Below, piece after piece: positions 4,839-42,915 of a DNA stretch of 64,000 nt (its first letter is position 1; the number at the start of each line of letters is the position of its first letter). The translations under genes were made by a program, and so were the position numbers. The notes beneath the pieces are model-generated. The model did no database searches, had not been told where the DNA came from, and worked only from the letters and a program-made list of their open reading frames with translations. Source of the DNA: Escherichia phage vB_EcoM_JNE01; the sequence record OR670491, one strand, 5' to 3'.

Positions 4839-4888
4839 GTAATCTACCAATCGAGTACAAGGATGTACTCATAACTCAAGGATGTTTT

Positions 4889-6328: not shown

Positions 6329-6337
6329 TAATACGTC

Positions 6338-6363
6338 GGAGTGCTTTTTATAGCACTCCTTCT
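6338..6363 (+). terminator. intrinsic terminator after phoH
   Basis: GGAGTGCT-TTTTAT-AGCACTCC hairpin followed by TTCT. Confidence 0.5.
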
Positions 6364-6374
6364 AAGGAATTATA

Positions 6375-7655
6375 GTGATAATAAAACATCTGTATTATAT
6401 TGACTCAAATTTCAGAAAATACGATAAAGTTTCAAAACTTAATCCAAAATACATTACAGATGTTATTTTCCAAGAAAAATACAACATAGATCGAAACAGT
6501 ACTGAAATACTACAGGATGATATATCATCATATACACCAAACGTAACGGGTTTTTATTATATAAAATACCCAACTGGTGTTAGAAAAGTTTATGCTTTAA
6601 AATGTAATGAGTGCTCTAAAAACTCAGTATTACATGGCGAAGGAATATATCTGGTTCACTTGTCACACATCAAAAACGGAATCATTTCGTGTGGGTGTGC
6701 AAAACGCACAAACTGGACACCATATCAATATTACATAAAAATGATATCAGAATGTAAAAATCGTAATTGCATTTTTTTAGGTTACGATAAAAAACACTTA
6801 CGTTTATATTGTCTCGAACATGGTTACTGGAATACCACATCCAAAGCACACTTCTTTAATGGGAAAGGATGTAGTAAATGTGGGGACACCAATTCAAGAG
6901 TGTTGAGAACAAAAGACAGTTATTTTCATATATCTAAATTTAAAATCTTAAATGCGTATAATTATCGACGTTCCGACAAGATTGATAGTAGTGGTCGCTT
7001 GCGTTATTGGGAATATATGTGTAAGAAATGTTCACATGATGAGTATGTTAGGCTCGGTTTGTGTAATGGGATTTTTACATCATTTAATAGTGATTTAGTA
7101 AAGGGTAAGAAATCATGTCGTTGTTCAAGTAACTATAGATGGACAGAAAAACAGCGTGAATATCAAATCACCAAACTCCTAAAATCCAATTTTCCTCACA
7201 TTAGCTTTAAAGGTTGGGTAAATAGTTATAAAAATATCCATAGTAAGGCGATTTTAAATTGTAATATTCATAATAATTATACGCAAAAAGTAAACTACAT
7301 ACTTAATAATAATTGTGGTTGTCCACAATGTGCTGGGATGACACAGACAGAATGTTATATAAATGTAATATATGATGTGTTTCCAATTGCTATAAAATAT
7401 GGAATTTCAACACATACAAAAAACCGCGTTTGTAGTCAAAATAATAAATCACCATTTGACGTTATTAATCATGGAATTTGGGATTTTGAAAATCCATATT
7501 TATGCAAAATGGCAGAAAATGAATGCAAGCGAACGGTAAGTCGTGTTCTATCAGAACGCGAGCTACCTGACGGATTTACTGAAACCGCTGAAGTGAAATA
7601 TATTGATGATATAATTAAAATATATGAAAGCTGGGGTGGTATCAAACGAAAATAG
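6375..7655 (+). CDS. Cys-rich repeat protein (zinc-ribbon-like repeats), possibly mobile-element derived
   Basis: 426 aa; at least four repeats of CxxC...HGxW...CxxC; markedly AT-richer codon usage than neighbours; GTG start with RBS aagga. Confidence 0.45.
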   Translation: MIIKHLYYIDSNFRKYDKVSKLNPKYITDVIFQEKYNIDRNSTEILQDDISSYTPNVTGFYYIKYPTGVRKVYALKCNECSKNSVLHGEGIYLVHLSHIKNGIISCGCAKRTNWTPYQYYIKMISECKNRNCIFLGYDKKHLRLYCLEHGYWNTTSKAHFFNGKGCSKCGDTNSRVLRTKDSYFHISKFKILNAYNYRRSDKIDSSGRLRYWEYMCKKCSHDEYVRLGLCNGIFTSFNSDLVKGKKSCRCSSNYRWTEKQREYQITKLLKSNFPHISFKGWVNSYKNIHSKAILNCNIHNNYTQKVNYILNNNCGCPQCAGMTQTECYINVIYDVFPIAIKYGISTHTKNRVCSQNNKSPFDVINHGIWDFENPYLCKMAENECKRTVSRVLSERELPDGFTETAEVKYIDDIIKIYESWGGIKRK

Positions 7656-7726
7656 TAGTTTTTTGTAGACAAAACGAAAAATAGTGATATAATAATGTTA
7701 TTAACAACAAAGAAGGAGAATCAATC

Positions 7727-26614: not shown

Positions 26615-29410
26615 ATGTTAAACAATAATCCTAATATTGATAATATCGTACAGTTAATTTATGGTCATCACAAATTTCTTGAAAGAAACACTGGTGATAC
26701 AATTGACCCTACTGTACAGCACTATGTAATTAATGAACAAGGCGTATTGGCTAACAACCGTCATTTCATCAATCACTCCGCAATGGAAGGACAACCAAAT
26801 GGTGACGGCACAACAGAAGGTCAAAGTCTCCTTATTCTTGGATACATTTATGCGTATTTGGCAACCAACGACAATTTATTTCTTGAAAAAGCTAAATGGT
26901 ACTGGGATGCATATCATCAGTACTTCTATAATGGTAGAGAATTTCCTGATCCACCAACTCCGTTACAATGCAACTGGATTGTGAACGCAAAGGAACCAAT
27001 TCTAGCAAACTGGCCTTTGGCTGACGACGGATGGCCTACTCACGGTGGATTTAAAGGTATCGAGTTTCCTTTCGTTAATGGTCAATGCAAAGTGCCTCAT
27101 GGTGCTCCATATTATGGTGAGTATATTGATAAAGTTACGTTTGCATTCAAAGGTGCATTGGCATGGAATCAAATAAATGCATCAGTAAAAGCAATATTAC
27201 CTGATGGAAGTACAGATTGGGATAACCCTGGTGAGCAGTATGATGTTGATTGGGTTATAGATTTCTTAGGTCGTAAAGTTGATTGGGATGGAAACATTCT
27301 GGCTGAAGGTTTTGATGAATCTGAAAAAGGTACTGTCCAATTAAAAGACACTACACTCAATGGAACTTATAAACTAAACTTTGCCAACAGACAACCTATT
27401 GAATTTGGTGGTGTTTATATTGAACGTAACCAAATGCAACATAACCGTCCATTACACGTTCCAATTAGTTTAGAGTTTGCTGATAACGCGAGTGATGCCG
27501 AATTATGGTTCAGTGATGCTTCTTACTTGTTATATAAAATAACCAAAGAAAGAAAACATTATCTTGGCTGGAAATGTTCACTACTTACATGTTATGCATA
27601 CGGAGATATTGACGCAAAAGATAAATTCTTCCGTCAAAGTACAATTGTTACTACCCCATTTACTGATGGTATTTCATATGAATATTTCTATCCAAGTACT
27701 GCAATTGCTGAATTTGGAAGAAACTCACTTGGATATATTACAATTAAGCAACAAGAAAGTGCACAAAGTACACTTGAGCAACAGGCTATTTGGTTCAGAT
27801 TGAATACATCGTCCAGCTTAGTTGTTGATTACGGTGGTGTTTGTGTTGATGGGAAACCTTTATCATTTAAACCAGTACTGGAATTATCGAAAACAAAGAA
27901 TGAGCATGATACTGTTCGCTATCGCTGCGGTCTTCCAGAAAGTACCAATAGAGATATCAAACATTCAATAACACCGCTGAGTGCATTTGTTCGTGAGAAA
28001 AAAGATGATGGTTCCCCTTACATTATTGCAGATAGTAGAATTGTAGTTCCGTATGGTTCAGGTACATCAGAAATGTTATATAGTACTGATATTTTAGAAA
28101 CAAGACGAGACACTATTAACCAATTAGTTTGTGGTGAAGATGATGGTGCAGTTATTGGTTTCTGGTTACTTGATTCCGGTAAATCTGAAGTGAAAGCTTT
28201 TACTTATCGTTCATATGAAGATGATTATAACATCCGTATCGTTGATGATAATGGCTGGCGTTGGTGGTGGATGATTCCTGCAACCCACGGTGAATGGAGT
28301 ACAATAGAATTAACTGCTGATACTTTACATTTATCTGGATGGCAACCAAATCACCCTGATGACCCTGATCCTGCTGCTCCGGTATATACAGAATTAGAAG
28401 ATATTACAATTCTCCCTGATACGACTCCAGTAAATGGAGTTGCAGTACTGGATTGGTATTGTTTAAACGAGCTACCAGAACTGTACAACAACGAAGATGG
28501 CGATGACTACACTATGGCATTCGCCATTACAATTGCTGGTGAGAGTGCTTATACGGCTCTTTTAGGGGATTGTGTAATCAAAGATTATTTGCTAAACTCA
28601 TTACATTATACACCAGGAACTATCCCGTTCTCTAACATTACCGACCCATATGCTAGTCAGTACTCTGGATGGCGTGGATTACCATATCCTGGGTATCAGT
28701 ATCCTGTAATCTACTGTTTCGAAGATGTACCAGTTGACCATACACGCCTTGGTAATATGGTTGATTTCATGAAAGATTCTCAAGAGTGGTTTACTTCACA
28801 ATTCGGTACTGTTGGTCCTTGTGCTCAAGCATATGTATGGAACCGTTGGGATAACCTGAAATATGGGGAACCCGATACGTTTACTATGTTACACTGGGGT
28901 GATCAAGCGTGGAGTGGTTATGAACCTCGTGCATTCTTTGGTGCTTGTAGAGCATGGCAAGAACTACATGACCGTGGTGAGGAAGTTCCACAAACAATCA
29001 TTGATTTCTGTGAGAACTGGATTCATTTCTTGATTAAGTTTCAGAAAGACAATGATGGTCGCTCCCCGACGATTTTCAACAAAGATGGTACAGTTGAAGG
29101 TCCAGATTGGGACTTCACCGGACATATGTGTGGATTGTGGTTGGCAGGTGCATGTTGTGCTGGTCTTGCTGGATGTACCATTGAGGGATTAGATGAACTC
29201 GCTGATGGTTTAGTACTGGAACTTCAGAACAACTATGTGGTAGTTTCTCCTGGCTCTGTTATGAACGGTTCATGGAGTCCTGGTGTTCGTGAAGGTACTG
29301 ATAATGGTATGTTCTTCGGATTCTGGGCTGGTGAGATTATGCGTGGTTTAGGATTGTACTCAATGTACCGCCTTAACACACCTAACCGTTATGCTGCATT
29401 TCCTGGTTGA
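26615..29410 (+). CDS. large tail-associated protein, possibly glycosidase-like fibre/depolymerase
   Basis: 931 aa, Trp/Tyr/Gly-rich, follows fibre-like gene with RBS aggag; function not recognisable from motifs. Confidence 0.45.
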   Translation: MLNNNPNIDNIVQLIYGHHKFLERNTGDTIDPTVQHYVINEQGVLANNRHFINHSAMEGQPNGDGTTEGQSLLILGYIYAYLATNDNLFLEKAKWYWDAYHQYFYNGREFPDPPTPLQCNWIVNAKEPILANWPLADDGWPTHGGFKGIEFPFVNGQCKVPHGAPYYGEYIDKVTFAFKGALAWNQINASVKAILPDGSTDWDNPGEQYDVDWVIDFLGRKVDWDGNILAEGFDESEKGTVQLKDTTLNGTYKLNFANRQPIEFGGVYIERNQMQHNRPLHVPISLEFADNASDAELWFSDASYLLYKITKERKHYLGWKCSLLTCYAYGDIDAKDKFFRQSTIVTTPFTDGISYEYFYPSTAIAEFGRNSLGYITIKQQESAQSTLEQQAIWFRLNTSSSLVVDYGGVCVDGKPLSFKPVLELSKTKNEHDTVRYRCGLPESTNRDIKHSITPLSAFVREKKDDGSPYIIADSRIVVPYGSGTSEMLYSTDILETRRDTINQLVCGEDDGAVIGFWLLDSGKSEVKAFTYRSYEDDYNIRIVDDNGWRWWWMIPATHGEWSTIELTADTLHLSGWQPNHPDDPDPAAPVYTELEDITILPDTTPVNGVAVLDWYCLNELPELYNNEDGDDYTMAFAITIAGESAYTALLGDCVIKDYLLNSLHYTPGTIPFSNITDPYASQYSGWRGLPYPGYQYPVIYCFEDVPVDHTRLGNMVDFMKDSQEWFTSQFGTVGPCAQAYVWNRWDNLKYGEPDTFTMLHWGDQAWSGYEPRAFFGACRAWQELHDRGEEVPQTIIDFCENWIHFLIKFQKDNDGRSPTIFNKDGTVEGPDWDFTGHMCGLWLAGACCAGLAGCTIEGLDELADGLVLELQNNYVVVSPGSVMNGSWSPGVREGTDNGMFFGFWAGEIMRGLGLYSMYRLNTPNRYAAFPG

Positions 29411-29916: not shown

Positions 29917-30291
29917 ATGAGTATGCTAGAACTATTGCTTAAACATGTAATTATACCATATTGGAAACCATTATTAGTTGTTTTAGTAATGTCTGGATGT
30001 GTGTATGGTGGATGGGAAGCAAACAATTACTACACCGGATACAAAGAAAGCATTGATTTGAAAATTGAAAAACAAGTCAATGCTGCTTTGGATCAGATGC
30101 AACAAGAATCGGCTAAAAGTTATATTGAAACTAAGCAAATCATGCAAGATAATGCTAAGGTCATTGAAACTAAAATACCTTACATCGTTGAACGTGAAGT
30201 TTACTACAATGTATGTTTAGACCAAGATGGTGTGAATGTTCTTAAAGAACTAAAAGAAAATTCACGTAAAGCGAGGAATCAGTACAAATGA
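29917..30291 (+). CDS. i-spanin-like protein (Rz-like)
   Basis: N-terminal TM segment then coiled-coil-like charged region; immediately followed by overlapping lipoprotein gene. Confidence 0.45.
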   Translation: MSMLELLLKHVIIPYWKPLLVVLVMSGCVYGGWEANNYYTGYKESIDLKIEKQVNAALDQMQQESAKSYIETKQIMQDNAKVIETKIPYIVEREVYYNVCLDQDGVNVLKELKENSRKARNQYK

Positions 30292-30593
30292 AATATATTC
30301 TGATTTTATCATGTGCACTATTATTTGCTGGATGTGCTCAAAAAGTACAATTACCTGCTGACCGAGTAGTAAAGCAAGAGATTCTACTTGAGCGTTGTTC
30401 GTTTGATACCCCACTCCCTGAACAAATTGTTGTTGACAAACACGGCAATTCAGGATACTCTGGTAAAGAAGTTTTGGATGTACTACGTAAATGGGATTCA
30501 ATCTACAATGATTGTGCTCTAAAGCACGATGCATTAATTGACTTGATTCGTAAACTACAAGGTGAAAACATCACGGTCATTATTAAAGAGTAA
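30288..30593 (+). CDS. o-spanin-like outer-membrane lipoprotein (Rz1-like)
   Basis: MKYILILSCALLFAGC signal peptide with lipobox FAGC; ATGA overlap with upstream gene. Confidence 0.5.
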   Translation: MKYILILSCALLFAGCAQKVQLPADRVVKQEILLERCSFDTPLPEQIVVDKHGNSGYSGKEVLDVLRKWDSIYNDCALKHDALIDLIRKLQGENITVIIKE

Positions 30594-30603
30594 GGACATT
30601 TGA

Positions 30604-31200
30604 ATGAAGAAATATCAGGTTTACTATAAAACTAATTTAGATTTAATTCATAAACTATCTACTACTGGAGAAGGTACTAAGCGTTATACTTTCAATAAGG
30701 TAACATTCAGATACTTCCCACAAAAAGTACTGACATTTGTTAAAAATTGCAAATGCATTGCTTGTGGTATCGAAGGAACCGAAGTTCGTATTGAACGTTC
30801 TCACAGTAACGATCCAATTTATGGTAAACCTCATCTCAATGTCTATGCAGTGTGTGGATTGTATGAAGTACTCATGACCGTAGATCATAACCATCTGGCT
30901 TCTAAAGGCGGGTCTGATTTAGAAAGTAATTTTAATACCATGTGCGTTCACTGTAATCAAATGCGTTCAAATAAAACTGAAACAGTTCAAGAATTTCTTG
31001 AAAATGTTAAAGGTCGAAATCTATTAGATGAACACATGAAACTTTTTTTCGATAAACAGGAAAAGAAAAAGAACCCTTCTAATAGAAAGCCAGAAACAAT
31101 CGCTTATGAAAAATGGTGGAATGAAGAACATTTATGGCATTACCGTGATTATCTTCGTAAATTGAAAAAAGAAGAAAAAGCTTTACTTAAACAAAAGTAG
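30604..31200 (+). CDS. HNH endonuclease
   Basis: CxxC ... VDHNHLASKGGSD ... NFNTMCVHCN: HNH motif with zinc-binding cysteines. Confidence 0.7.
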   Translation: MKKYQVYYKTNLDLIHKLSTTGEGTKRYTFNKVTFRYFPQKVLTFVKNCKCIACGIEGTEVRIERSHSNDPIYGKPHLNVYAVCGLYEVLMTVDHNHLASKGGSDLESNFNTMCVHCNQMRSNKTETVQEFLENVKGRNLLDEHMKLFFDKQEKKKNPSNRKPETIAYEKWWNEEHLWHYRDYLRKLKKEEKALLKQK

Positions 31201-31251
31201 TATGTATAATGGGACTTGAGAAATCAAGTCCTTTTTTTATAGGTAAAATAT

Positions 31252-31608
31252 ATGAAAACTAAAATCTTTCTACCACAAACCATGATGGAACTGTGTGAAC
31301 ATGATGCAGGAGATGTAGTCACTATTAGTGGTTCCTGGATTGAGAGTACTGAAGACTTTATGCCAGATGAGGTTTATTCTGTTGTTTTAAATGAACAGTA
31401 CAATACAAGCCGTTGGAATGCACAGTACAATCTAGTTTTTCTTGACAAGAACAATGAAAAGTACTATCATTGTACGTATGAACGAGGTCTGACAGAACGT
31501 AACTACACAACTCCTTTCTGTGATGAAATGGATGGTGTAAAGTGCTATGAAGTTTCTGTTCGTCAGGTTCCAGTTGTTACTTACAAAACCGAGTGGGATT
31601 ATCTGTAA
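31252..31608 (+). CDS. hypothetical protein
   Basis: 118 aa ORF with AT-rich upstream region. Confidence 0.45.
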   Translation: MKTKIFLPQTMMELCEHDAGDVVTISGSWIESTEDFMPDEVYSVVLNEQYNTSRWNAQYNLVFLDKNNEKYYHCTYERGLTERNYTTPFCDEMDGVKCYEVSVRQVPVVTYKTEWDYL

Positions 31609-32006
31609 TGCTTAAAGATTTAGATTTTTCAAATTTAGAGATCATCAGTGCAGTGAAGAACATTACTGATATGGATGATGAAAAAGGTGTAATGGTAACT
31701 ATCACTTTCGTAAAGGAAGAGGATAGCTATAAGCATCTTACTGGAATTGAAGAACTAATCCACAAGACCAATCTCGAAAACGATGGTAAGCTTATCAAGC
31801 TTCAGGCATCCTATTCCCAAAAAACGTCATTTTTTGTAGACCTAAATAATGTAGTCAAGGTGGTATACAATCATCCTGACAACAAATACAGAAGCACAAC
31901 ACGAAACGAAGAAGCAGCCATCGACACTAATATCAAAGATGATGTCGAATTTGTTAATACAGTTTTTGAGCGTTGTGCACCTGAATTGAAAAAAGTATAC
32001 TTATAG
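31608..32006 (+). CDS. hypothetical protein
   Basis: Start at ATG 31608 overlapping upstream stop (TAATG); ORF-track start 31593 also possible. Confidence 0.45.
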   Translation: MLKDLDFSNLEIISAVKNITDMDDEKGVMVTITFVKEEDSYKHLTGIEELIHKTNLENDGKLIKLQASYSQKTSFFVDLNNVVKVVYNHPDNKYRSTTRNEEAAIDTNIKDDVEFVNTVFERCAPELKKVYL

Positions 32007-32007
32007 T

Positions 32008-32037
32008 TTGGGAAATACTCCAGAAAAGTGCTATAAT
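32008..32037 (+). promoter_or_regulatory. sigma70-like promoter with extended -10 (TGcTATAAT)
   Basis: ttggga (weak -35) then tgctataat at 32029-32037; directly upstream of the non-coding island. Confidence 0.45.
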
Positions 32038-32043
32038 GTATAG

Positions 32044-32568
32044 TGAAAATGACAATGGGCGGTGTAAGCCGGATAACGAGAACCTAATTCTCTTGAAAAT
32101 GTAAAGGATAGATGAGCTTTACCATTGTAGCGATGAGCAAAAGAAACCCGTAAGAGTACTAGCAGCCATTCCAACAAGGCATAAGAACTACGAATCACGG
32201 CGAAGCGGCTCAATAAAGAACTCCGACAGCATAACAGAGAGTTCCTCGATAGACTTATAAGGATCGCACCTTACCAGATTTGCTAAGGGAGTTTAACTCA
32301 ATAAATGCGGTCGCAATTTTTCACAAGAAAGTTGCGTCCAAATTTTGAGTAAACAAGTACTACTTTGGTCGAATAGAGTTAGTACTTTGTGCTGGGGATG
32401 AAAAGACCAGTGACCGTTGCATATGACTGCGATAGAGAGAAACAGAGCAACCCGCTTTCGTTCTCTTAAATTAGACGAGAAAGATCCGTCTAAAATTTGA
32501 GAAATTCGCAATTCGACAATTCCGATGCCATCAGCGTCAAGAAGAGACTTAATTGTCTCTTTTTTATT
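32044..32568 (+). ncRNA. candidate structured non-coding RNA (~0.5 kb), family unknown
   Basis: No credible ORF on either strand; GC-richer than flanks; own promoter and terminator; multiple hairpins; two ~33 nt imperfect direct repeats (A(C/G)AAGAAAG(T/A)T(G/C)CGTC(C/T)AAA(A/T)TTTGAG(T/A)AA) about 150 nt apart. Confidence 0.35.
32541..32568 (+). terminator. intrinsic terminator
   Basis: AGAGAC-TTAATT-GTCTCT followed by TTTTT. Confidence 0.6.
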
Positions 32569-32572
32569 ACTT

Positions 32573-32594
32573 TCATTCCCCTGCGGGGGGATGA
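32573..32594 (+). other. stable 9 bp hairpin with UGCG tetraloop
   Basis: TCATTCCCC-TGCG-GGGGGATGA, nine pairs including one G-U; no U-tract after it. Confidence 0.5.
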
Positions 32595-32700
32595 AATGTC
32601 CTCAACAAATCCCGTCAAGCTTTTAAAGTACAATATAAAGGAATGAATGAGTTTACGAAGTAAACGATATGAATTCTTGAGTTACGAAGGAACGAAGTGA

Positions 32701-33129
32701 ATGAGTAACACAGCGAATATTTCAAATAAATCTGAATTCACACAAGAGTTGTTTAATGTGTTTTTCAAATATCAAATATTAGAAGAGAGTCAATGCTTTC
32801 AGCTTTATTACAAACAAGTCGGTAGTACATACAACAACTACAAAGAACCTAATTTTTATAAAGAAATTTTGGATTTTGCAGTTAATATAAGAAATAACAG
32901 ACCAATAGCAATACTGTTTTTTGACAGATCTATTCCAGTAGAAGTACCTAATCACATTTACTTCATTGAACCAGAAGATTTATCTTCAAAGAATCAATTA
33001 GATTACTTAAGGAATTGTATACTGATAGTATGTGATGAAGTGAAGTATAACCGTCAGTTGAGATGGGATATACGTCATCAAAGAGTACTCAGGGACATGA
33101 ATCCCGAATTAGCCTTTATAATTAACTAA
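32701..33129 (+). CDS. hypothetical protein
   Basis: 142 aa; its start region (gaatgagt) is duplicated about 50 nt upstream as a 6-codon mini-ORF. Confidence 0.5.
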   Translation: MSNTANISNKSEFTQELFNVFFKYQILEESQCFQLYYKQVGSTYNNYKEPNFYKEILDFAVNIRNNRPIAILFFDRSIPVEVPNHIYFIEPEDLSSKNQLDYLRNCILIVCDEVKYNRQLRWDIRHQRVLRDMNPELAFIIN

Positions 33130-33160
33130 ATATCATAGAAGAACTCTAAGGAGAGATTTT

Positions 33161-33601
33161 ATGGAAAATATTGAAAATTTAAGACATGTAATGGACTTCA
33201 TTGGAAGTACTGAAGAAGATAGTGCATACGATGAAGTACTACTTACTTTTATTGAAAATAGTTTATTTCTATCTAGTTTAGCTCATAGTTGGCATTTACA
33301 ATGTCATTTCTATACTAAGCACTTACAGTTAGATGAACTATATAAAGACTTACCAGAGTACGTTGATGCATTCGTAGAAGGTATTATGAATAATCGCGGT
33401 GCTTTGCAGGTTGGTACTGGACATAGTTACAAATTCACCCCAGTGGAAGAATGTGTTCCTATTCTTGAAGAATATGTTGAGCAATGCAAAGCAATTCATG
33501 CTATGCTTACTGAAGCTGAAGACTATGGCAGTACTAACACACTAGAAGATATTATGAGTTTTGTTGAAGGAATGCTTTACAAACTCAAAGTTTTACAATA
33601 A
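33161..33601 (+). CDS. hypothetical protein
   Basis: 146 aa; RBS aaggagag. Confidence 0.5.
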   Translation: MENIENLRHVMDFIGSTEEDSAYDEVLLTFIENSLFLSSLAHSWHLQCHFYTKHLQLDELYKDLPEYVDAFVEGIMNNRGALQVGTGHSYKFTPVEECVPILEEYVEQCKAIHAMLTEAEDYGSTNTLEDIMSFVEGMLYKLKVLQ

Positions 33602-33608
33602 AATATAC

Positions 33609-33640
33609 GGAGAGTCCATAACGGATTCTCCTTTCTTTTG
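33609..33640 (+). terminator. intrinsic terminator
   Basis: GGAGAGTCC-ATAAC-GGATTCTCC then TTTCTTTTG. Confidence 0.55.
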
Positions 33641-33650
33641 GAGAAAATTA

Positions 33651-34004
33651 ATGAGTGAATACCGAGTAACAACTGGCCTAATGGCACGTTTAGTAGAAGC
33701 TGTACCTGAAGATGATTATGAATCTGTTTCTGACCGTCTATTCGAAGCTGACTCTGGCCTTCATATTACATATGATGGTTCATTAATTTTCAGTACTGAT
33801 GTTGATGTTCCTGCATATGAATTTGATATTTCAATTGGTACTAAACTAAGCAAAACTGCATTTATTGAAAAGTGCTTACGTGAAGGTTTTTGTGTTGATG
33901 AAAATTCAATTGAACCATATGTATCAGTATGGTGTGATAATGCTGATAGTCCAATGTCAACTACAACAATTGGTGATTTTCTAAATGCAAATCAAAAAGA
34001 TTAA
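33651..34004 (+). CDS. hypothetical protein
   Basis: Start refined to ATG 33651 after the terminator; ORF-track start 33561 overlaps upstream gene. Confidence 0.5.
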   Translation: MSEYRVTTGLMARLVEAVPEDDYESVSDRLFEADSGLHITYDGSLIFSTDVDVPAYEFDISIGTKLSKTAFIEKCLREGFCVDENSIEPYVSVWCDNADSPMSTTTIGDFLNANQKD

Positions 34005-34377
34005 ATTCCATCAGCATTCTTCCTATCATGATTGTGATGACTGTGGGATGATGATAAGTGATATTTACACTGTTTCATGTAAAGGGTTTACATTCACTCA
34101 TGGTGAACCTGCTTATTGCTACGGCAATGAAGAAGGGGATATCGAAATAGTACTAAAAGAGTTGTTTCAGTACTTGCAAAGCGAAGGTCATGATGTTACA
34201 ATGCCCACATATTATGAAGATGATTATGAATCACATGTAGAAGAAAATACATATTATAATCAATTCGTACATGGTAATGGTTTTATTACATACCTTCATG
34301 AGAATGGTATTGAGGTAAAAACCAAGTTCACCAGTGATGACTACGATAGTGATGATTCTATGGAGATTGAAGAATGA
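33985..34377 (+). CDS. hypothetical acidic protein
   Basis: 130 aa, Cys/His pairs near N-terminus, acidic C-terminus. Confidence 0.45.
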   Translation: MQIKKIKFHQHSSYHDCDDCGMMISDIYTVSCKGFTFTHGEPAYCYGNEEGDIEIVLKELFQYLQSEGHDVTMPTYYEDDYESHVEENTYYNQFVHGNGFITYLHENGIEVKTKFTSDDYDSDDSMEIEE

Positions 34378-34943
34378 AGGCCAAAGATTTAGCGGCATTA
34401 CTGATGCAGAATCCTGAAATGGAAGTGTATCATGAAAATTGGCACAGTGATGATATGTGCGAGGTATATTATTCCCCAGAAACAATTGATGGGATTGAAA
34501 TTACTCCCAGTGGTGTATTCATCAAGACTGCAAGTGTTGATTTCAATGACAGTCGTGAAATTAAACTCCCGTGTGATAAACCAATCATTGGAACAATTGA
34601 CCTAGTATTCCACCAGGAACGTCAGATTGATACTGAAAATGAAGATGGTGAACAGGTTGCTGATGTTGCCAATGTCATTTTCCCTTTTTACTATTCTGAT
34701 TCACAACCAATGCACGGTAATGATTTCTTCCGTGAACTTTTGGAAGATGGTGAGGTATATGGTCGTGATGGAAATGTATTTGCACTTGATGAGAACTACG
34801 AACCAGACCACAACACTTGGCAGTTCTATACACCAGAAGATGTTATGGAAGTAAAAGTACTAACATCATTTGACGAACAGTGGAATGTACAGTATACTTC
34901 AATGAAGTTTGAAGAAGCTAAAAAATACTTTGAAACCAAATAA
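34374..34943 (+). CDS. hypothetical protein (N-terminus paralogous to 10832 gene)
   Basis: 189 aa; ATGA overlap. Confidence 0.5.
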   Translation: MKAKDLAALLMQNPEMEVYHENWHSDDMCEVYYSPETIDGIEITPSGVFIKTASVDFNDSREIKLPCDKPIIGTIDLVFHQERQIDTENEDGEQVADVANVIFPFYYSDSQPMHGNDFFRELLEDGEVYGRDGNVFALDENYEPDHNTWQFYTPEDVMEVKVLTSFDEQWNVQYTSMKFEEAKKYFETK

Positions 34944-34968
34944 GATTATCAAATAAGGATCTAATAAT

Positions 34969-35253
34969 ATGAAAATTGTTGCAAGTGCGTGGATGGGATT
35001 TGAGGATAAAACTACTGGTTACGAATCTAGCCTAATCGTTGAAAGTACTGAAGAATTAAAACGATTTAAAGCTGAAACCGATGATGATGTATTTGATATT
35101 GTATACACTTATCATCTCATCCCTAACGATACCGACTATGACAAATATTATTATGATCCAGACAGCCTCATGGAGCTAGTGTCTTGTACTGAAAATGAAG
35201 TAAATGAGACAACGGCACTACTAATGTTGAGTACTGTCCCAGCAAAGGGGTAG
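34969..35253 (+). CDS. hypothetical protein
   Basis: 94 aa ORF with RBS. Confidence 0.45.
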   Translation: MKIVASAWMGFEDKTTGYESSLIVESTEELKRFKAETDDDVFDIVYTYHLIPNDTDYDKYYYDPDSLMELVSCTENEVNETTALLMLSTVPAKG

Positions 35254-35256
35254 TTT

Positions 35257-35742
35257 ATGTATACACTTATTTTCTTACGTGAGCCAGACGGTGACAGTAC
35301 TGATGGTGTTGTTGAATTTCATGGTGCTGACTCCATTGTTGCAGTAGAACGACTTATCAAAGCTGTTGTTCGTAGGCAGGTTCTTCTTGAACGTACTAAC
35401 AAAGGAAAATACACTTATGGTGAATGTGGCTTTGTACTGCTGAAAAATGGCGAATTAGTTGATGAATACAATAGTTCTTTTTCAAACATGTATTCTGATT
35501 TTGAATGTATTTCTCAATCTAAAGAAAAATACAGCATAAACAAAGTTGTGCAACAAATTTCCAGACTTCTATCAAGACAAACAAGTTTTATCAATGACCA
35601 GAAAACTGATGAGCGATTCGTATCAAATTCATTAAAACCTTTGTATGAACGTTTGGAAAAAGAAAATATGGAGCGTAAACGTCTAAAAGAATTGATGGAA
35701 AAGTATCCTGATATGGTGAAAGAATATGGCAAAGAGATCTAA
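35257..35742 (+). CDS. hypothetical protein
   Basis: 161 aa. Confidence 0.45.
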   Translation: MYTLIFLREPDGDSTDGVVEFHGADSIVAVERLIKAVVRRQVLLERTNKGKYTYGECGFVLLKNGELVDEYNSSFSNMYSDFECISQSKEKYSINKVVQQISRLLSRQTSFINDQKTDERFVSNSLKPLYERLEKENMERKRLKELMEKYPDMVKEYGKEI

Positions 35743-36046
35743 TTTATCATATGAAGCATGTGAAACATACATGACCAAAGATGGAAAGGAACATCGAGGG
35801 GTTAAGCCAGAGTACGTAGTGCTACGTGAAGTTCTGTTGAATGAAAGTTACGGCAGCAATCGCCGTAACAAGATCTTAGATTTACTAAGAAGCGGAATTG
35901 AAATTGCAGTAAATCGCAAGTACTCTGTCCAGACGAAAGATGATCCAGATATCAAGAAATTGATTAAGGACGGTAAAATTGAAATGTTCAATGTAGCTAC
36001 TGGTCCGAAATCAAAATGCACATACTTAAGGATTAAGAATGGGTAA
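35726..36046 (+). CDS. hypothetical protein
   Basis: 106 aa. Confidence 0.4.
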   Translation: MAKRSNLSYEACETYMTKDGKEHRGVKPEYVVLREVLLNESYGSNRRNKILDLLRSGIEIAVNRKYSVQTKDDPDIKKLIKDGKIEMFNVATGPKSKCTYLRIKNG

Positions 36047-36620
36047 ACTAATATATTACTATGGGAGTATGAGTTCAGGTAAAAGTACTAACTTATTACA
36101 AACAGCATACAACCATAAAAAGAATGGAATGGAAGTGGTTTATCTCACCAGTGCATTAGATGACCGATACGGGGTTGGTACGATTAAATCCAGAATTGGC
36201 ATCGAAGCCCAGGCAGAGATTATCCCAAAAGATGACAGTACTTTATTATTGGACATTAAGAAACGTCTTGAGAAGAACTTAGATATTAACAGTATCTATG
36301 TTGATGAATGCCAGTTCCTGAATAAAGAACAAGTTGATATTCTTTCTGAAATTGCAGATGAATACAATGTTGACGTTTACTGTTATGGTATTCGTACTGA
36401 TTTCGAAACAAATCTTTTTGATGGTTCACGACGTTTGTTCGAAATTGCAGATGAAATCCATCAGCTACATAATGTGTGTGAAAACCAAAAATGTGGTCAC
36501 CCAGCAACAATGAACGTCCGCATAGCAAACAGTACTGATAAAGTTTTCATTGGTGGTGATGAATCATATAAAAGTATGTGCAGAAAATGCTATAAAGAAT
36601 ACATGAGGAAAAAGAAATGA
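36039..36620 (+). CDS. tk: thymidine kinase
   Basis: P-loop YYGSMSSGKST, conserved VDECQF and C-terminal zinc-ribbon cysteines (CxxC ... CxxC); 193 aa typical of type II TK. Confidence 0.9.
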   Translation: MGKLIYYYGSMSSGKSTNLLQTAYNHKKNGMEVVYLTSALDDRYGVGTIKSRIGIEAQAEIIPKDDSTLLLDIKKRLEKNLDINSIYVDECQFLNKEQVDILSEIADEYNVDVYCYGIRTDFETNLFDGSRRLFEIADEIHQLHNVCENQKCGHPATMNVRIANSTDKVFIGGDESYKSMCRKCYKEYMRKKK

Positions 36621-36841
36621 TTGATAACTTTCTAAAATCTATTACTCAAAGAGTATTTGGTGCTTTACTGGATAGTATCAAATTAGTATTCAGTACTGTC
36701 TATATGCTTATTATTGTATGTCTATTTTCTTTAGTACTGCATTTTGTACCAACATGGCTAGTTATTACTGCTATTATTGTATTCCTGGCATTTGGTGTTT
36801 ATGGAACATACCTGGCAGAACTTGAAGATTCAGACGTGTAA
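36617..36841 (+). CDS. small membrane protein
   Basis: 74 aa, two hydrophobic helices. Confidence 0.4.
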   Translation: MIDNFLKSITQRVFGALLDSIKLVFSTVYMLIIVCLFSLVLHFVPTWLVITAIIVFLAFGVYGTYLAELEDSDV

Positions 36842-36847
36842 CACATT

Positions 36848-36871
36848 AGACCCTTTATGGGTCTATTTTTT
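36848..36871 (+). terminator. intrinsic terminator
   Basis: AGACCC-TTTAT-GGGTCT then ATTTTTT. Confidence 0.65.
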
Positions 36872-36882
36872 AAGGAAAATAC

Positions 36883-37362
36883 ATGGAACCTATCTTTGGT
36901 GCATTGAAGCGTTTTGTAGATATTATATCTCATACTAACGTTCTCTATAATGACAATGACAGTACTGTAAAAATGATGGAAGTACTGGGATACACAGACG
37001 TACAAAGTGTGTATTATGACGGTATCATGGTCAGAGGTATCGAAGGAGATTGTCGATTATCTTACATGGGTATGATTGACACCTTTGTTGTACAGAAAGG
37101 AAAGATTGAAATTGTCCTTGAAGTACGTTATACAGGTTCATCAAACACAATATATTACAATTGTACCCGTACTGATTGTGCATATGAAACAGACTTTGAC
37201 CAGCAAACGACTATGCAATCCAGACCAATCGATTACCCTGATGATTCTTTTGTGCAAATTCATAAGGATTTATTTGATTTATGTGCTACAATGTCAGAGA
37301 GTGAAGACGTATATTACTTCCCAATCATCACAGTAAGAGAGAATGGTAATGCGATGGCGTAA
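36883..37362 (+). CDS. hypothetical protein
   Basis: 159 aa. Confidence 0.45.
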   Translation: MEPIFGALKRFVDIISHTNVLYNDNDSTVKMMEVLGYTDVQSVYYDGIMVRGIEGDCRLSYMGMIDTFVVQKGKIEIVLEVRYTGSSNTIYYNCTRTDCAYETDFDQQTTMQSRPIDYPDDSFVQIHKDLFDLCATMSESEDVYYFPIITVRENGNAMA

Positions 37363-37747
37363 ACATAAAGTGAAACAGCTTGAAAAAATTGTCAAGAAGT
37401 TTTATAGCAAAAAAAGTGATCCAATGATGGTTATGCTACGTGACAGTATAGGGGTACGAAAGTATCCTGAATGCTTAACCAACTCTATTGGTCGCATGAA
37501 CAATCGATACTACGTTAATGATTATGCAAGTGCCGAAACCTCTTTTTTCGGAAATCGTGTATCTGTACCATCATACGTTCATTCAAAAGTGAAGCGAAGC
37601 CGTGTTCAAGGTGTTCTGCATGGTTATTTGCTGATTACGATGGAAGAATTAAACAAAGAGTTAGGTACTAACTACACCCAAGGCTGCATAGACAATATCA
37701 AGTTCATAAAAGATTTGGACGAAGAGTTAGATGATGATACAATGTAA
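37343..37747 (+). CDS. hypothetical protein
   Basis: 134 aa. Confidence 0.45.
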   Translation: MVMRWRKHKVKQLEKIVKKFYSKKSDPMMVMLRDSIGVRKYPECLTNSIGRMNNRYYVNDYASAETSFFGNRVSVPSYVHSKVKRSRVQGVLHGYLLITMEELNKELGTNYTQGCIDNIKFIKDLDEELDDDTM

Positions 37748-37777
37748 ATTGTACAACTGGAAAAAGGAAAATGAATA

Positions 37778-37909
37778 ATGAACGGATTAAAGAAGTTTGG
37801 AACTGACGTTCTTAAGTGCATTCGATACACTTATGACGCTAATCCAGAAATGACTGCAATTGTGGGTGTTTTCATTGCACTCGTTGTTTTATCTTGTATT
37901 ATGGTGTAA
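37778..37909 (+). CDS. small membrane peptide (uncertain)
   Basis: 43 aa ORF not in track, C-terminal TM segment, RBS ggaaaaagga. Confidence 0.3.
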   Translation: MNGLKKFGTDVLKCIRYTYDANPEMTAIVGVFIALVVLSCIMV

Positions 37910-37912
37910 AAT

Positions 37913-38116
37913 ATGATTGAAATTAATGCTGATGTATATTGTAGTGCTGCACCAAATTACTTCATTTATGCACTAAGTACTTTTGGTGATACAGAAGGTG
38001 AAACTTTTGTTTTAGTAGATAATACTACATGGTACAAAACAAGTAATAAAATTCCGAAAGATGTTTTGGAAACTTATGTTCGTATTGAAAATAAAAACAT
38101 ATATGTAAATTTATAG
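37913..38116 (+). CDS. hypothetical protein
   Basis: 67 aa. Confidence 0.4.
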   Translation: MIEINADVYCSAAPNYFIYALSTFGDTEGETFVLVDNTTWYKTSNKIPKDVLETYVRIENKNIYVNL

Positions 38117-38123
38117 GTAAAAT

Positions 38124-38534
38124 ATGATTGAAATGGAAGGAACTCTGGTGTATGATCCAGATCGTGGCACTATGAAAAAGAAGAAGGACTTCTGGTTAGT
38201 ACTGCAACTTCCATTACAGTTGGTTCGATACTACCAGTACTTCATCAGAACTGACTTACATATTGATATTAAAGACCCACAATGGGGAGCACATGTCAGT
38301 ATCGTTCGTGGTGAAGTGCCACCAAATCCAGAGTACTGGAAAAAGTACGATGGTATGAAAGTTAAGATTAAGTTCGAACCTTTCATCGAAGAAGTAAAAG
38401 ACAATAAGAAACCTGGGTCATTCTTTATCATAGAGTTTGAAGATGATTTCATTGCACAAATTCGTGATGAACTTGGTTTAGCATCTAAATATTTCAAATA
38501 TCACATCACCATTGGTAGAACATACTACGATTAA
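38124..38534 (+). CDS. hypothetical protein
   Basis: 136 aa. Confidence 0.45.
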   Translation: MIEMEGTLVYDPDRGTMKKKKDFWLVLQLPLQLVRYYQYFIRTDLHIDIKDPQWGAHVSIVRGEVPPNPEYWKKYDGMKVKIKFEPFIEEVKDNKKPGSFFIIEFEDDFIAQIRDELGLASKYFKYHITIGRTYYD

Positions 38535-38701
38535 TGTGGTTATTTGGTAAATAGGTCTTGATATAACTAAAAAGTATGCTATACTACTTAAATGTTCCAA
38601 AGAACAACTGAGTACTGTAGAAAGTCCAATGAGGCTTTTGCAAATGGCCTCTTTGCCCTCTTTGTGATTGCTCATTGTTAACAACCAACAAAGGAGGCGT
38701 T

Positions 38702-39628
38702 TTGAAAAAAGCGAAAAAAGCACTGAAAACTAAAATTGCCGTAGGCGTATTAGTTTCATCAGCCCTATTCGCTGCTATTGGATTTTATGGTTTTTCTCAA
38801 AGTGATCATGTACCATCATTAGACGAAAGTCAGGTGCATAATTTAAAACCACAGTTTACTCAAATTCAAAAGCAGGAACTACCACAGGTATCAGTACCAA
38901 AAGCAGTTCCAAGCAGCGAGAAACATTATACGGTTCAACCTGGAGATAGTTATTATTCTATTGCACAGAAATTTAAACCTAAAAATGTACAGATTGAAGA
39001 TTATGTCATTTTGTTGAAGAACATCAACTTAAATGCAACTCTTCATACTTCTCAGGGTATCTTTATCCCAACAAAAGAGGATTTGAAGAACGTATTGTTA
39101 CCAGATGTGACTGTACTGTTTGATTATAAAGATCCAGAAATTGTCAATCACATCAAAGAAGCTGAAGGTTCTATTGAATTTCAGTCCAAGAACAAACGAC
39201 GTTTACTTGGTGGGAAAGTTGGAGTTCCATATCGAAATTCTAAATTTTATCCGTATCGTGATATAAAAGGTAACTTCACTATTGGGTACGGACATTATCT
39301 TGGAAAGAAAGAATCAGATGCAAGTAAGTATCGTAATGGTATTACGAAGTCACAAGCACATAAACTTTTATTGTCTGACATGGAACGAACTAATAATGAT
39401 TTAGTTTTATTATTGAAGAAAAGAAATGCAACAAACCTTACGGCTGAACAGCAACGAATTTTATTTGAGATGGCATTTACATTAGGAGTTGATAAGTTAA
39501 ATACTTTCAATAAATTATGGAAAAGCGTTGATAATCAAAATGATAACAAGTTCAAAAAAGAAATTAAGAATTCTCTATGGTATCGTCAAGTAGGAAACCG
39601 TGCAGAATTGTTAGTTAGTAATTTGTAA
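38702..39628 (+). CDS. endolysin: GH24 (T4-lysozyme-like) muramidase with N-terminal TM/signal-anchor and LysM domain
   Basis: TM segment IAVGVLVSSALFAAIGFYGF; LysM-like YTVQPGDSYYSIAQKF; C-terminal TIGYGH...RxxLFEMAFTLG matches T4 lysozyme family; probable TTG start 38702 with RBS aaggagg. Confidence 0.7.
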   Translation: MKKAKKALKTKIAVGVLVSSALFAAIGFYGFSQSDHVPSLDESQVHNLKPQFTQIQKQELPQVSVPKAVPSSEKHYTVQPGDSYYSIAQKFKPKNVQIEDYVILLKNINLNATLHTSQGIFIPTKEDLKNVLLPDVTVLFDYKDPEIVNHIKEAEGSIEFQSKNKRRLLGGKVGVPYRNSKFYPYRDIKGNFTIGYGHYLGKKESDASKYRNGITKSQAHKLLLSDMERTNNDLVLLLKKRNATNLTAEQQRILFEMAFTLGVDKLNTFNKLWKSVDNQNDNKFKKEIKNSLWYRQVGNRAELLVSNL

Positions 39629-39677
39629 TTTACAATAAAGGATGATATGTATCATCCTTTATTTTTAAGGTAAAAAT

Positions 39678-40310
39678 ATGATATATAATGTTGGTATAAA
39701 TGATGTACCAGGTGATTCTAAATCGGATAGTGATGGTTATTATATATATGTGAAATGGAAAAGTATGATTAAACGATGCTACTCAGTTGAATATCAAAAA
39801 ATACACCATTCATATATTGGAACAACTGTATGTAATGAATGGCTTACATATTCAAATTTTAAAGATTGGTATCTAAATAATTACATAGACGGGTATGTTT
39901 TAGATAAAGACTTGATATCGGGTGATTTACAAGTATACTCACCAGTGACATGTTCATTTGTACCACAAGAATTAAATTGTTCTATTCTTGAAAGTAATAG
40001 TGCTAAAACAAAACTACCATTGGGTGTGTCATATCAACAGAAAACTAAAAATATGATAAATGAACGTTCGAAACCATATGATTCATATATAAAAATGTAT
40101 GGTAAGTTGTATCGTCTTGGTAGTTATGAATGTCCTGAACTTGCACATAAAGAATGGCAAATCGCCAAGAAAAAATATCTCGAAGAACTCATTGACAGAT
40201 ATAAAAATTCTGTTAAAATGGAAGTCATAGAAGGTATTCAGAAACGAATTGATATATTACATAATGATATAGTCAATGACGGTGTTACAATAACAATCAA
40301 TAAGATATAA
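39678..40310 (+). CDS. AP2-domain protein, homing-endonuclease-like (possible mobile ORF)
   Basis: WKSMIKRCY...YIGTTVCNEW motif plus AP2-like LGVSYQQKTKN...YGKLYRLGSYECPELAHKEW; AT-rich relative to neighbours. Confidence 0.45.
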   Translation: MIYNVGINDVPGDSKSDSDGYYIYVKWKSMIKRCYSVEYQKIHHSYIGTTVCNEWLTYSNFKDWYLNNYIDGYVLDKDLISGDLQVYSPVTCSFVPQELNCSILESNSAKTKLPLGVSYQQKTKNMINERSKPYDSYIKMYGKLYRLGSYECPELAHKEWQIAKKKYLEELIDRYKNSVKMEVIEGIQKRIDILHNDIVNDGVTITINKI

Positions 40311-40322
40311 GGTAGGTAAATT

Positions 40323-40649
40323 ATGCTAAATTTCGTTATCCAAGGTAATGTAGATGTTACTCCAGCAATTCATGACGCAATCCGCGATGAAGCAACAGTA
40401 CTAAGTAAATTTAGTGATGCTTCAGTACTGAATCTTGGTGTTCATCTGAAGAAAGAGCATAAAACACAGTACACTGTAACACTAACTTCTAATGGTAAGT
40501 CTGTTACTGCAAATGCAGCAGATTTATACAAAGCGATTAGTGATTCATTTGAAAAAATGGAAGTTGTACTTGGTAAAGACAAAAGCATTAAACTGCATCG
40601 TCGTAACCACCCAACACGTCCTCTGGACTTGACAGAAGACGAAGAGTAA
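40323..40649 (+). CDS. hpf: ribosome hibernation promoting factor / RaiA-like protein
   Basis: 108 aa; MLNFVIQGNVDVTPAIHDAIRDE...LHRRNH follows the HPF/YfiA pattern (N-terminal ITGxNVEITPALR-like, basic C-terminus). Confidence 0.6.
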   Translation: MLNFVIQGNVDVTPAIHDAIRDEATVLSKFSDASVLNLGVHLKKEHKTQYTVTLTSNGKSVTANAADLYKAISDSFEKMEVVLGKDKSIKLHRRNHPTRPLDLTEDEE

Positions 40650-41802: not shown

Positions 41803-42915
41803 ATGAAAAAATATCTCGTGGGTGGATTCGTCCGCGACCGACTACTGGGCTTACGTGCTAAAGACAAAGATTATGTCATTGTCAGTGCATCTGAATCTGA
41901 TATTAAGTACTTGAAAAGTATTGGGTACAAACAAGTCGGCATTGATTTCCCTGTATTCTTGAGTCCAGAGGGAAATGAATATGCATTAGCCAGGACTGAA
42001 CGTAAAGTCGGTGTAGGCTATAATGGCTTTGAAGTTAATACTAAAGGTGTAACCTTAGAAGACGACTTATATCGCCGTGACCTCACAATCAATGCTATTG
42101 CATACGATCCAGTACTGCAAATTCACATCGACCCATACGGTGGGAAAGATGATATTAAGAATAAAGTACTGCGTCACGTTTCAGAGCACTTCAAAGAAGA
42201 CCCATTACGTGTTCTTCGTCTTGCACGCTTTGCAACACGATATAATGACTTTACAATTCACGAAAGTACTGTTACAATGTGCACTGAAATGGTTAGTACT
42301 GGTGAGTTGAATCATCTTGTACCAGACCGTGTGTATGTTGAATTTGAAAAGGCACTCACTGAAGAGAAACCTGCCAAGTTCCTTAAGACACTGGCTAATT
42401 TCGGCTATTATGAAAAAGCATTTACTAAAACACTAACCCGTAAGGTATTAGAATTGGTTGATAACATTTCAGATAATTGTACAGAAGCATATAAGCCATA
42501 TTTCATTTGGAGTGCACTACTCGAAACAGAAGAAGTAAATAAAGACTCAGTACTGAACGAATCAATTAAAATGCCCGTTAAGTACGTGAAGTTTAGCAAT
42601 TATGTAAAACGATTCCGTGATGATATCAAGACATTCCGTAAGAAAACACCTGAAGAGATGGGTGCGTTGTTACTGGAAATGAACATTCGAAATAACGGTG
42701 GGGAAGAATTCCTGTACAAAGTGCTGGAGTACTTTATTCTTCGTCGTGAAATCGACCTTGAACTTGAAGATTTGATTATTAAGGTGTATGATCGTTACAC
42801 CGATACTGTATTACCTGATATTGAAGAAATGGTTAAAGACGGTTCTCTGGACAAGAAAGATATTCGTGACTTTGTACAAGGTTTGCGTATTACTGAAATC
42901 CAGAAAATGTTCTGA
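41803..42915 (+). CDS. cca: tRNA nucleotidyltransferase (CCA-adding enzyme family)
   Basis: N-terminal MKKYLVGGFVRDRLLGL ... DxD ... GIDFPVFLSPEGNEYALARTERK ... RRDLTINA closely follows class II CCA-adding enzyme head domain. Confidence 0.85.
   Translation: MKKYLVGGFVRDRLLGLRAKDKDYVIVSASESDIKYLKSIGYKQVGIDFPVFLSPEGNEYALARTERKVGVGYNGFEVNTKGVTLEDDLYRRDLTINAIAYDPVLQIHIDPYGGKDDIKNKVLRHVSEHFKEDPLRVLRLARFATRYNDFTIHESTVTMCTEMVSTGELNHLVPDRVYVEFEKALTEEKPAKFLKTLANFGYYEKAFTKTLTRKVLELVDNISDNCTEAYKPYFIWSALLETEEVNKDSVLNESIKMPVKYVKFSNYVKRFRDDIKTFRKKTPEEMGALLLEMNIRNNGGEEFLYKVLEYFILRREIDLELEDLIIKVYDRYTDTVLPDIEEMVKDGSLDKKDIRDFVQGLRITEIQKMF

Follow-up and report, generated by a model that had tools for sequence, protein, structure and literature searches.

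A fixed HNH core gene and a candidate homing-type IPA-HNH gene less than 10 kb apart in the jumbo coliphage vB_EcoM_JNE01

When two genes resembling endonuclease genes lie close together in a phage genome, are both of them selfish elements? This question is raised by Escherichia phage vB_EcoM_JNE01 (sequence record OR670491), of which a stretch of 64,000 nucleotides (hereafter the window) was analyzed. An initial annotation, made from the sequence alone, had pointed to two open reading frames (ORFs), ORF-A (30604-31200, 198 aa) and ORF-B (39678-40310, 210 aa), as endonuclease-like selfish elements that may both mark intron-less homing insertion sites. Both ORFs are indeed present on the + strand. 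However, we consider it probable that they differ in kind, ORF-A being a fixed and vertically inherited HNH core gene and ORF-B a free-standing homing-type gene of the IPA-HNH family. DNA searches showed that the window belongs to a jumbo coliphage of the Asteriusvirus type (121Q/PBECO4-like; 121Q/RaK2-type) and retrieved about 35 related Asteriusvirus records, the nearest being Escherichia phage Turkey5. According to a local identity profile, the window is 98-99% identical to Turkey5 over 7.7-49 kb, a few short tracts excepted. In the region extending from ORF-A to ORF-B, every long ORF is on the + strand and the G+C content (GC) is about 36%, the mean of the window being 36.5% (standard deviation 3.0, segments of the same size). 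No paralog of ORF-A or of ORF-B was found elsewhere in the window by tblastn.

ORF-B lies between a LysM-lysozyme gene (38675-39628; Pfam Phage_lysozyme and LysM) and the gene of an HPF/RaiA-type ribosome hibernation factor (40323-40649, + strand; Pfam Ribosomal_S30AE, E 4e-11). Junction alignments with Turkey5, TH47 and 121Q revealed an insert of about 680 bp (39629-40308, + strand) that replaces a lysozyme-HPF spacer of about 10 nt; in these three phages, 10-16 nt separate the lysozyme stop codon from the HPF ribosome-binding site. Once the insert is deleted in silico, the window gives one contiguous alignment to about 32 Escherichia phage records, which thus represent empty sites. The mobile unit consists of (i) at its 5′ end, a terminator-like hairpin with a T-run downstream of it (39629-39673, + strand; folding energy -15 kcal/mol, z -3.7), (ii) a ribosome-binding site and (iii) ORF-B itself. 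The AT-rich composition previously noticed for ORF-B is real, since its GC (28.9%) falls within the lowest 1.1% of same-size segments, and that of the whole insert is 28.4%. No target-site duplication was found at the ends of the insert, the short AT-rich similarities present there being judged to be due to chance. A promoter-like site (40192-40219, + strand; TTGACA, 16 nt, TAAAAT, with an upstream TG; 11/12 matches in a consensus scan) is located inside the 3′ end of ORF-B, facing HPF and about 100 nt upstream of it. Such sites are not more numerous in total than expected from shuffled sequences, and the proposal that this one restores the transcription of HPF past the hairpin of the insert is speculative.

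The identity profile and per-base mismatch maps revealed that the insert is bordered on its lysozyme side by an imported tract of about 1.7 kb (from ~37,902-37,935 to 39,628; strand not applicable), which is 97.5-99.6% identical to phage TH47 and only about 77% identical to Turkey5. This tract carries a 67-aa ORF (37913-38116), a 2H-phosphoesterase-like ORF (38124-38534) and the lysozyme gene. The right crossover maps to the HPF start codon (40,321-40,329), within about 20 nt of the insert, and the sequence is of the Turkey5 type from there on. Taken together, the boundaries of the tract and of the insert imply that 2.4 kb of the phage sequence are foreign, the insert forming the right end of this patch. 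We read the TH47-like tract as a co-conversion tract, which homing would leave, although it is not the only process that can do so. An independent contig from metagenome run SRR13434628, L009, matches the window at 98% identity across the 3′ end of lysozyme, the insert and the start of HPF. It is of the TH47 type on both sides of the insert, so that a donor-type genome does exist. TH47 itself is empty at the lysozyme-HPF junction although it carries the donor-type lysozyme allele, and the lysozyme flanks of TH47 (empty) and L009 (occupied) are 97.5% identical. TH47 has its own IPA-HNH member, a 213-aa protein showing about 50% amino acid identity with ORF-B and encoded between a gp517 homolog and dps (~344,323-344,964 of the record). 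The window, Turkey5, 121Q and Ecwhy_1 have nothing inserted there, and in the phage collection this copy is unique to TH47. The remaining IPA-HNH copies within the genus are singletons located at other junctions.

Compared with Turkey5, the window has just one other large insertion (6332-7699), which shows the same one-sided pattern and constitutes an internal replicate. It follows a PhoH-like gene and carries a 426-aa ORF (6375-7655) that is absent from Turkey5 and in which Pfam recognizes three CapR domains (3.5e-24); a further match is phrog_681 'endonuclease' (9.9e-62), and this ORF is probably a homing endonuclease gene (HEG) of the T5orf172/CapR class. On the left of this insertion, about 1.6 kb (about 4700-6331) are 77-84% identical to Turkey5, whereas the right edge is 99.7% identical. 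The two insertions adjoin the two most divergent tracts relative to Turkey5 in 49 kb.

The ORF-B lineage was also found at other sites and in other phages. In Salmonella phage Munch, the lysozyme gene, an annotated terminator hairpin, a gene encoding a 205-aa homolog (51% identical to ORF-B) and HPF follow each other in this order, and the hairpin resembles that of the insert in sequence and occupies an equivalent position. According to coordinates, the junction has an equivalent order in 7t3, SE_PL and fENko-Kae01. A close homolog of ORF-B is present in an unrelated context in Klebsiella phage RCIP0023. Furthermore, the last nucleotides of the lysozyme gene (39620-39628 in the window) differ between occupied and empty sites: they are AATTTGTAA in the occupied alleles (window, L009 and Munch), AATCTTTAA in TH47, and CACTCTAA in Turkey5 and 121Q. 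This difference may reflect immunity of the target site, a trace of the target site or co-conversion. Overall, the ORF-B locus displays what is looked for in a homing gene, i.e., a presence/absence polymorphism among close relatives (precise insert, unaltered empty site), recurrence in divergent genomes, and a flank that is read as co-converted.

The affiliation of ORF-B is given by its homologs. It matches phrog_953 'HNH endonuclease' (PHROGs, E 8e-68) and gp59 of phage ICP1 (BLASTP E 2e-20, 36% identity over 139 aa), with which it shares the motifs W..M..RCY, LDKD, VY.P..C..VP...N and LP.GV; like ORF-B, gp59 has no Pfam match. The searched passages of Barth, Dunham & Seed (2023; PMC10448857) name the IPA-HNH homing endonuclease genes and describe a divergent HNH-3-related N-terminal domain, too divergent to be detected by Pfam, followed by a C-terminal AP2 domain. 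They also report that these genes are enriched in ICP1-like phages, Barbaviruses and Flaumdraviruses. ORF-B has this organization, with an N-terminal domain missed by Pfam HNH_3 and a C-terminal AP2 domain, and its homology to the founders of the family (gp59, gp115/116 and gp209) was assessed by comparison with gp59. A tblastn search detected homologs at 2,580 places in 1,508 phage records, with up to 7 per genome and none more than 60% identical, mostly in Vibrio (ICP1-like), Rheinheimera (Barba) and Pseudomonas (KIL) phages; as these dominant groups are the same as those given in the searched passages of PMC10448857, they support the affiliation. In an exhaustive profile search, the family comprised 26,086 cluster representatives, nearly all of them stand-alone proteins of about 200 aa. 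On sequence grounds, ORF-B is therefore a member of the IPA-HNH family, whose members have already been proposed to be homing endonucleases. The WxxMxxRC motif pointed out in the initial annotation was recovered as a family signature among 163 representatives sharing at most 50% mutual identity, on which all conservation counts given here are based (W27 in 160, M30 in 144, R33 in 162 and C34 in 151). Two other ideas about this protein were discarded. ORF-B covers only positions 198-398 of phrog_953, as a truncated HEG might, but its homologs, close and distant, are all of about 200-230 aa and align with it end to end, and just 49 nt of the insert precede its start codon. The series Y24...Y46-I-G is reminiscent of a GIY-YIG nuclease, but residues 21-35 are confidently helical. 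As a separate observation, the homolog of ORF-B is split into two tblastn pieces or two adjacent annotated genes in GAP32, fENko-Kae01, A4 and pEa_SNUABM_49, which suggests frameshifted and decaying copies, as expected in the life cycle of homing endonucleases.

A confident AlphaFold model of ORF-B was obtained from 16 homologs (predicted local distance difference test score, pLDDT, 91.3). The N-terminal half of the model comprises a helical module including W27..M30..R33-C34-Y35, then a strand (73-77), a loop, a second strand (92-96) and a short helix (97-101). The resulting predicted beta-beta-alpha core (codons 73-101; 39894-39980, + strand) would hold a putative active site devoid of histidine. 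The C-terminal part (codons 112-175; 40011-40202, + strand) is predicted to be an AP2/ERF-like DNA-binding domain made of a three-stranded sheet and a helix. The AP2-like domain of the initial annotation is thus borne out by a structure comparison that retrieved the AP2 fold, and although the Pfam AP2 profile did not match ORF-B itself, it directly matched 2 of the 16 homologs (best E 8.4e-6). Seven residues, D76, K77, D78, Y87, N100, W55 and W64, are invariant in 163/163 representatives. In the predicted structure, D76-K77-D78 belong to the core, Y87 to the loop joining the strands and N100 to the helix, and this D-K-D / Y / N constellation looks like an active site. The top fold match of the N-terminal domain is the restriction enzyme PacI, without any detectable sequence similarity. 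The catalytic site of PacI is reportedly flanked by two zinc-bound cysteine motifs. ORF-B has no such pair of motifs, its only conserved cysteines being C34 (151/163), C52 (123/163) and C92 (160/163). In the classification of Jablonska et al. (2017; PMC5714182), PacI constitutes group 20 of the His-Me fingers, which lacks the catalytic histidine; a tyrosine of the omega loop fills its role and a helical domain precedes the finger.

Besides the family membership, we observed a precise insertion, empty sites, mosaic boundaries, a donor-type contig and recurrence of the junction in another lineage; because of the insertion, the empty sites, the mosaic edge, the contig and the Munch recurrence, the locus fits homing with one-sided co-conversion. 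Under this reading, the AP2 domain would bind specific DNA at or near the 3′ end of lysozyme in phage genomes lacking the insert, and the His-less beta-beta-alpha-metal N-terminal domain would cut there, Y87 or K77 being catalytic and D76 and N100 serving as metal ligands by analogy with PacI. During co-infection, the break would be repaired off an insert-bearing genome, and the repair would copy the 680-bp unit (hairpin and ORF-B) together with donor sequence located on the cut side. In this way, a TH47-like donor would have passed ORF-B to a Turkey5-like genome through break-induced recombination, the lysozyme side being co-converted, and JNE01 would have kept a Turkey5-like backbone in which 2.4 kb are of donor origin (the insert and 1.7 kb that resemble TH47). 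DNA cleavage by ORF-B, the location of its target and its catalytic residues are what we infer from these comparisons. A broader proposal, that the IPA-HNH family is an active His-less branch of the His-Me fingers (using Y87 or K77 with D76 and N100) and that the ORF-B lineage is a homing element of the lysozyme/HPF junction which moves between genera of RaK2-like jumbo phages and drags lysis-gene alleles with it, is less likely than not and should be held tentatively.

Several results weigh against homing driven by a nuclease. No histidine is conserved among residues 1-108 in the 163 representatives, the position of the canonical catalytic histidine, which ends the first beta-strand, being taken by D76 or K77 in all of them. 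Pfam, NCBIfam and PADLOC scans gave no match for ORF-B, so no nuclease family was detected, and searches of PDB sequences with ORF-B and with the family profile gave chance-level matches only (a designed maquette and deoxycytidine kinase, both discarded). The hhalign comparison of the family profile with the canonical HNH_3 protein gp80 of ICP1 gave no alignment, although this search against a target of one sequence was probably underpowered, and no cleavage assay of any IPA-HNH protein was found in the literature. The description of ORF-B as endonuclease-like has to be qualified by the missing histidine and the lack of a nuclease family recognizable by sequence. These features have led us to consider as the main rival that ORF-B is a nuclease-dead, sequence-specific DNA binder, i.e., a former endonuclease turned regulator or anti-defence repressor, spread as cargo by homologous recombination between co-infecting phages. 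There are precedents, since the His-less Smad MH1 domains bind DNA but are no longer nucleases (PMC5714182) and the AP2-domain phage CasPRs, anti-CRISPR repressors defined by a CapR zinc finger and an AP2 domain, act purely as transcriptional silencers (bioRxiv 10.64898/2026.02.23.707548). However, the CapR domain was not detected by Pfam in ORF-B, the invariance of D76-K77-D78, Y87 and N100 is of the kind found in active sites, and PacI demonstrates that a His-less beta-beta-alpha-Me site based on a tyrosine can be catalytic. Furthermore, the sporadic intergenic spread of multiple copies, the recurrence at the Munch junction and the sharp one-sided tract are expected from nuclease-driven homing. 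We thus regard a nuclease-dead ORF-B as unlikely.

Other objections concern the history of the locus rather than the activity of the protein. As TH47 shows, the donor-type lysozyme allele also occurs without the insert, and the mosaic could have arisen by ordinary recombination. In addition, the identities between the window and Munch are similar for the ORF-B homolog (51%) and for its flanks (54% for lysozyme and 38% for HPF), which is compatible with ancient residence followed by later loss. ORF-B would then have occupied the lysozyme-HPF junction since the common ancestor of Asteriusviruses and Munch-like phages and have been lost from most Asteriusviruses; general recombination would have produced the mosaic incidentally, and no targeted cleavage would take place today. 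The shared junction and the homologous hairpin of Munch agree with this scenario. However, it demands that about 32 genomes, or their ancestor, lost the gene cleanly and without a scar, and the presence/absence contrast between TH47 and L009, whose lysozymes are nearly identical, has to be explained on its own. The scenario does not accommodate the outlying GC of the insert and leaves unexplained why both extra nuclease-type genes lie exactly at the edges of the two most divergent tracts. It accounts less well for the TH47/L009 polymorphism and the mosaic edges, and we consider it quite improbable. The idea of the initial annotation that both ORFs, including the HNH gene at 30604, are selfish homing endonucleases at intron-less sites is by far the least credible. 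It has in its favor the intact HNH core of ORF-A and the RefSeq-style annotations that read 'HNH endonuclease', but it is refuted for ORF-A because this gene is present in all relatives at one position. The part that concerned homing sites is thus well supported for ORF-B, which forms a precise AT-rich insert absent from about 32 relatives, and falls for ORF-A.

ORF-A (+ strand) does encode an HNH (HNN-type) nuclease, as the initial annotation had recognized from its motif. It matches Pfam HNH PF01844 (24.0 bits for a gathering threshold of 21.4, E 4.2e-5) and phrog_23285 'HNH endonuclease' (E 2.7e-87), and it has the motif C51xxC54 ... D94-H95-N-H ... N109 ... C114xxC117-N118. C51, C54, D94, H95, N109, C114, C117 and N118, the catalytic and zinc residues of this zinc-bound core, are invariant in an alignment with the orthologs from 121Q, Ecwhy_1, RaK2 and Munch; the PDB sequence search gave nothing significant for ORF-A. 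Exactly one copy was detected by tblastn in each of the ~35 Asteriusvirus records, at an equivalent position, and homologs at 45-48% identity were found in the RaK2/K64-1 group and in Munch-like Salmonella and Klebsiella phages. Directly 5′ of ORF-A are the genes of an i-spanin (29917-30291) and an o-spanin (30288-30593), both on the + strand. Their similarity to phrog_456 'Rz-like spanin' and Pfam LysC is weak, and the annotations of 121Q, RaK2 and Munch list the orthologs as spanins. ORF-A is the third gene of this conserved i-spanin/o-spanin/HNH block in 121Q, Ecwhy_1, RaK2 and Munch. Its amino acid identity with the 121Q ortholog (68.6%) is in the range of its neighbors (37-87%, and 55-78% for the four directly adjacent genes), its GC (32.5%) is unremarkable, about one standard deviation under the window mean, and the identity to Turkey5 is unbroken (97.6-99.8%) across 29.5-32 kb, without any mosaic edge at the locus. 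Neither sporadic distribution nor any empty site was found for ORF-A among the ~35 relatives, RaK2 and Munch. Since it is universal, single-copy and syntenic over at least three jumbo-phage lineages and diverges like its neighbors, ORF-A is a vertically inherited, fixed core gene of RaK2-like jumbo phages and not a homing insertion. A housekeeping role in DNA processing would fit this conservation, though any function beyond that of an HNH nuclease is putative, which also tempers our conclusion about the two genes. The detectable homologs of ORF-A are all carried by phages of ~310-600 kb (RaK2-like phages, Bacillus phage G, and Brevundimonas, Xanthomonas and Yersinia jumbo phages). This range suggests a conserved jumbo-phage function and makes ORF-A a likely marker for a clade of jumbo phages.

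Some additional features of the window deserve mention. The surroundings of ORF-B include genes linked to translation and RNA repair, namely HPF/RaiA, a CCA-adding tRNA nucleotidyltransferase (41803-42915) and the 2H-phosphoesterase-like gene, which are kept in relatives. The middle section of a 931-aa tail-fibre-like gene (window 26500-28500) is 86-90% identical to Turkey5, with surroundings at 97-99%; it constitutes a third divergent tract relative to this phage, without any insertion, and probably reflects host-range variation. Lastly, two neighboring segments of about 205 bp (1104-1308 and 1353-1557) each match the Turkey5 counterpart of the other at 75.6%, which indicates a local tandem duplication or a pair of paralogous genes.

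ORF-A was already annotated in relatives, whereas ORF-B is a fresh member of a described family at a site that had not been previously discussed; its insertion is a tidy case of a known phenomenon rather than something new. If our reading is correct, the locus offers a clean natural before-and-after case from a jumbo coliphage, in which a free-standing nuclease-type gene stands at the edge of an exchanged region, with a complete series made of a backbone relative, a donor-type contig, about 32 empty sites and an occupied site in another lineage. It would then extend the pattern reported for ICP1-like phages. It also provides a testable hypothesis about a His-less active site for tens of thousands of proteins labeled 'HNH endonuclease' that lack the defining histidine. 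As regards annotation, it should be emphasized that this label spans here one fixed core gene and one mobile gene located less than 10 kb apart.

The comparison with known systems places the two genes differently. The orthologs of ORF-A, 121Q gp513, RaK2 gp522 and Munch gp184 (37-68% amino acid identity), share with it the position following the spanins and the CxxC / DH / N / CxxCN residues; they show no notable difference from ORF-A, which is the local copy of this gene. The closest described relatives of ORF-B are the IPA-HNH genes of ICP1 (gp59, gp115/116 and gp209), which, according to the searched passages of PMC10448857, are likewise free-standing, present in multiple copies, sporadically placed and found at a boundary of genetic exchange. 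However, those passages place them next to polymerase, ribonucleotide reductase (RNR) or terminase genes, whereas ORF-B occupies the lysozyme-HPF junction of a RaK2-like jumbo coliphage, and gp59 is longer (272 aa compared to 210 aa). Neither the PacI-like fold match nor the D-K-D / Y / N constellation devoid of histidine figures in the searched passages of that paper; both result from the present analysis. PacI (PDB 3m7k/3ldy) resembles the model of ORF-B by a helical N-terminal part preceding the beta-beta-alpha unit, by the lack of a catalytic histidine and by a tyrosine in the loop between the strands, for which Y87 is a candidate equivalent. It differs by its two Cys4 zinc sites, its nature of dimeric restriction enzyme and the lack of an AP2 domain, whereas ORF-B has three conserved cysteines and an AP2 domain. 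The canonical HNH_3 and AP2 HEGs (I-HmuI group; Magnani et al. 2004) are phage-borne and combine, as ORF-B does, a nuclease-like domain followed by AP2, and the HKD...NN...N motif of ICP1 gp80 has a spacing that resembles that of ORF-B. However, the HNH_3 profile of Pfam misses ORF-B, in which D76 or K77 replaces the catalytic histidine and a distinctive W..M..RCY helical module precedes the core. SegG, SegF and MobE of phage T4 belong to other families (GIY-YIG, and HNH with a zinc finger), but they share with ORF-B the intergenic location of a free-standing gene between conserved genes and a polar, one-sided donor tract beside the insert with a sharp boundary on the opposite side. In the established literature cited in the searched passages of PMC10448857 (its references 10 and 11), the Seg and Mob enzymes cut away from their own gene and both cleavage and marker exclusion have been demonstrated experimentally; for ORF-B, cleavage is deduced from the pattern of the locus.

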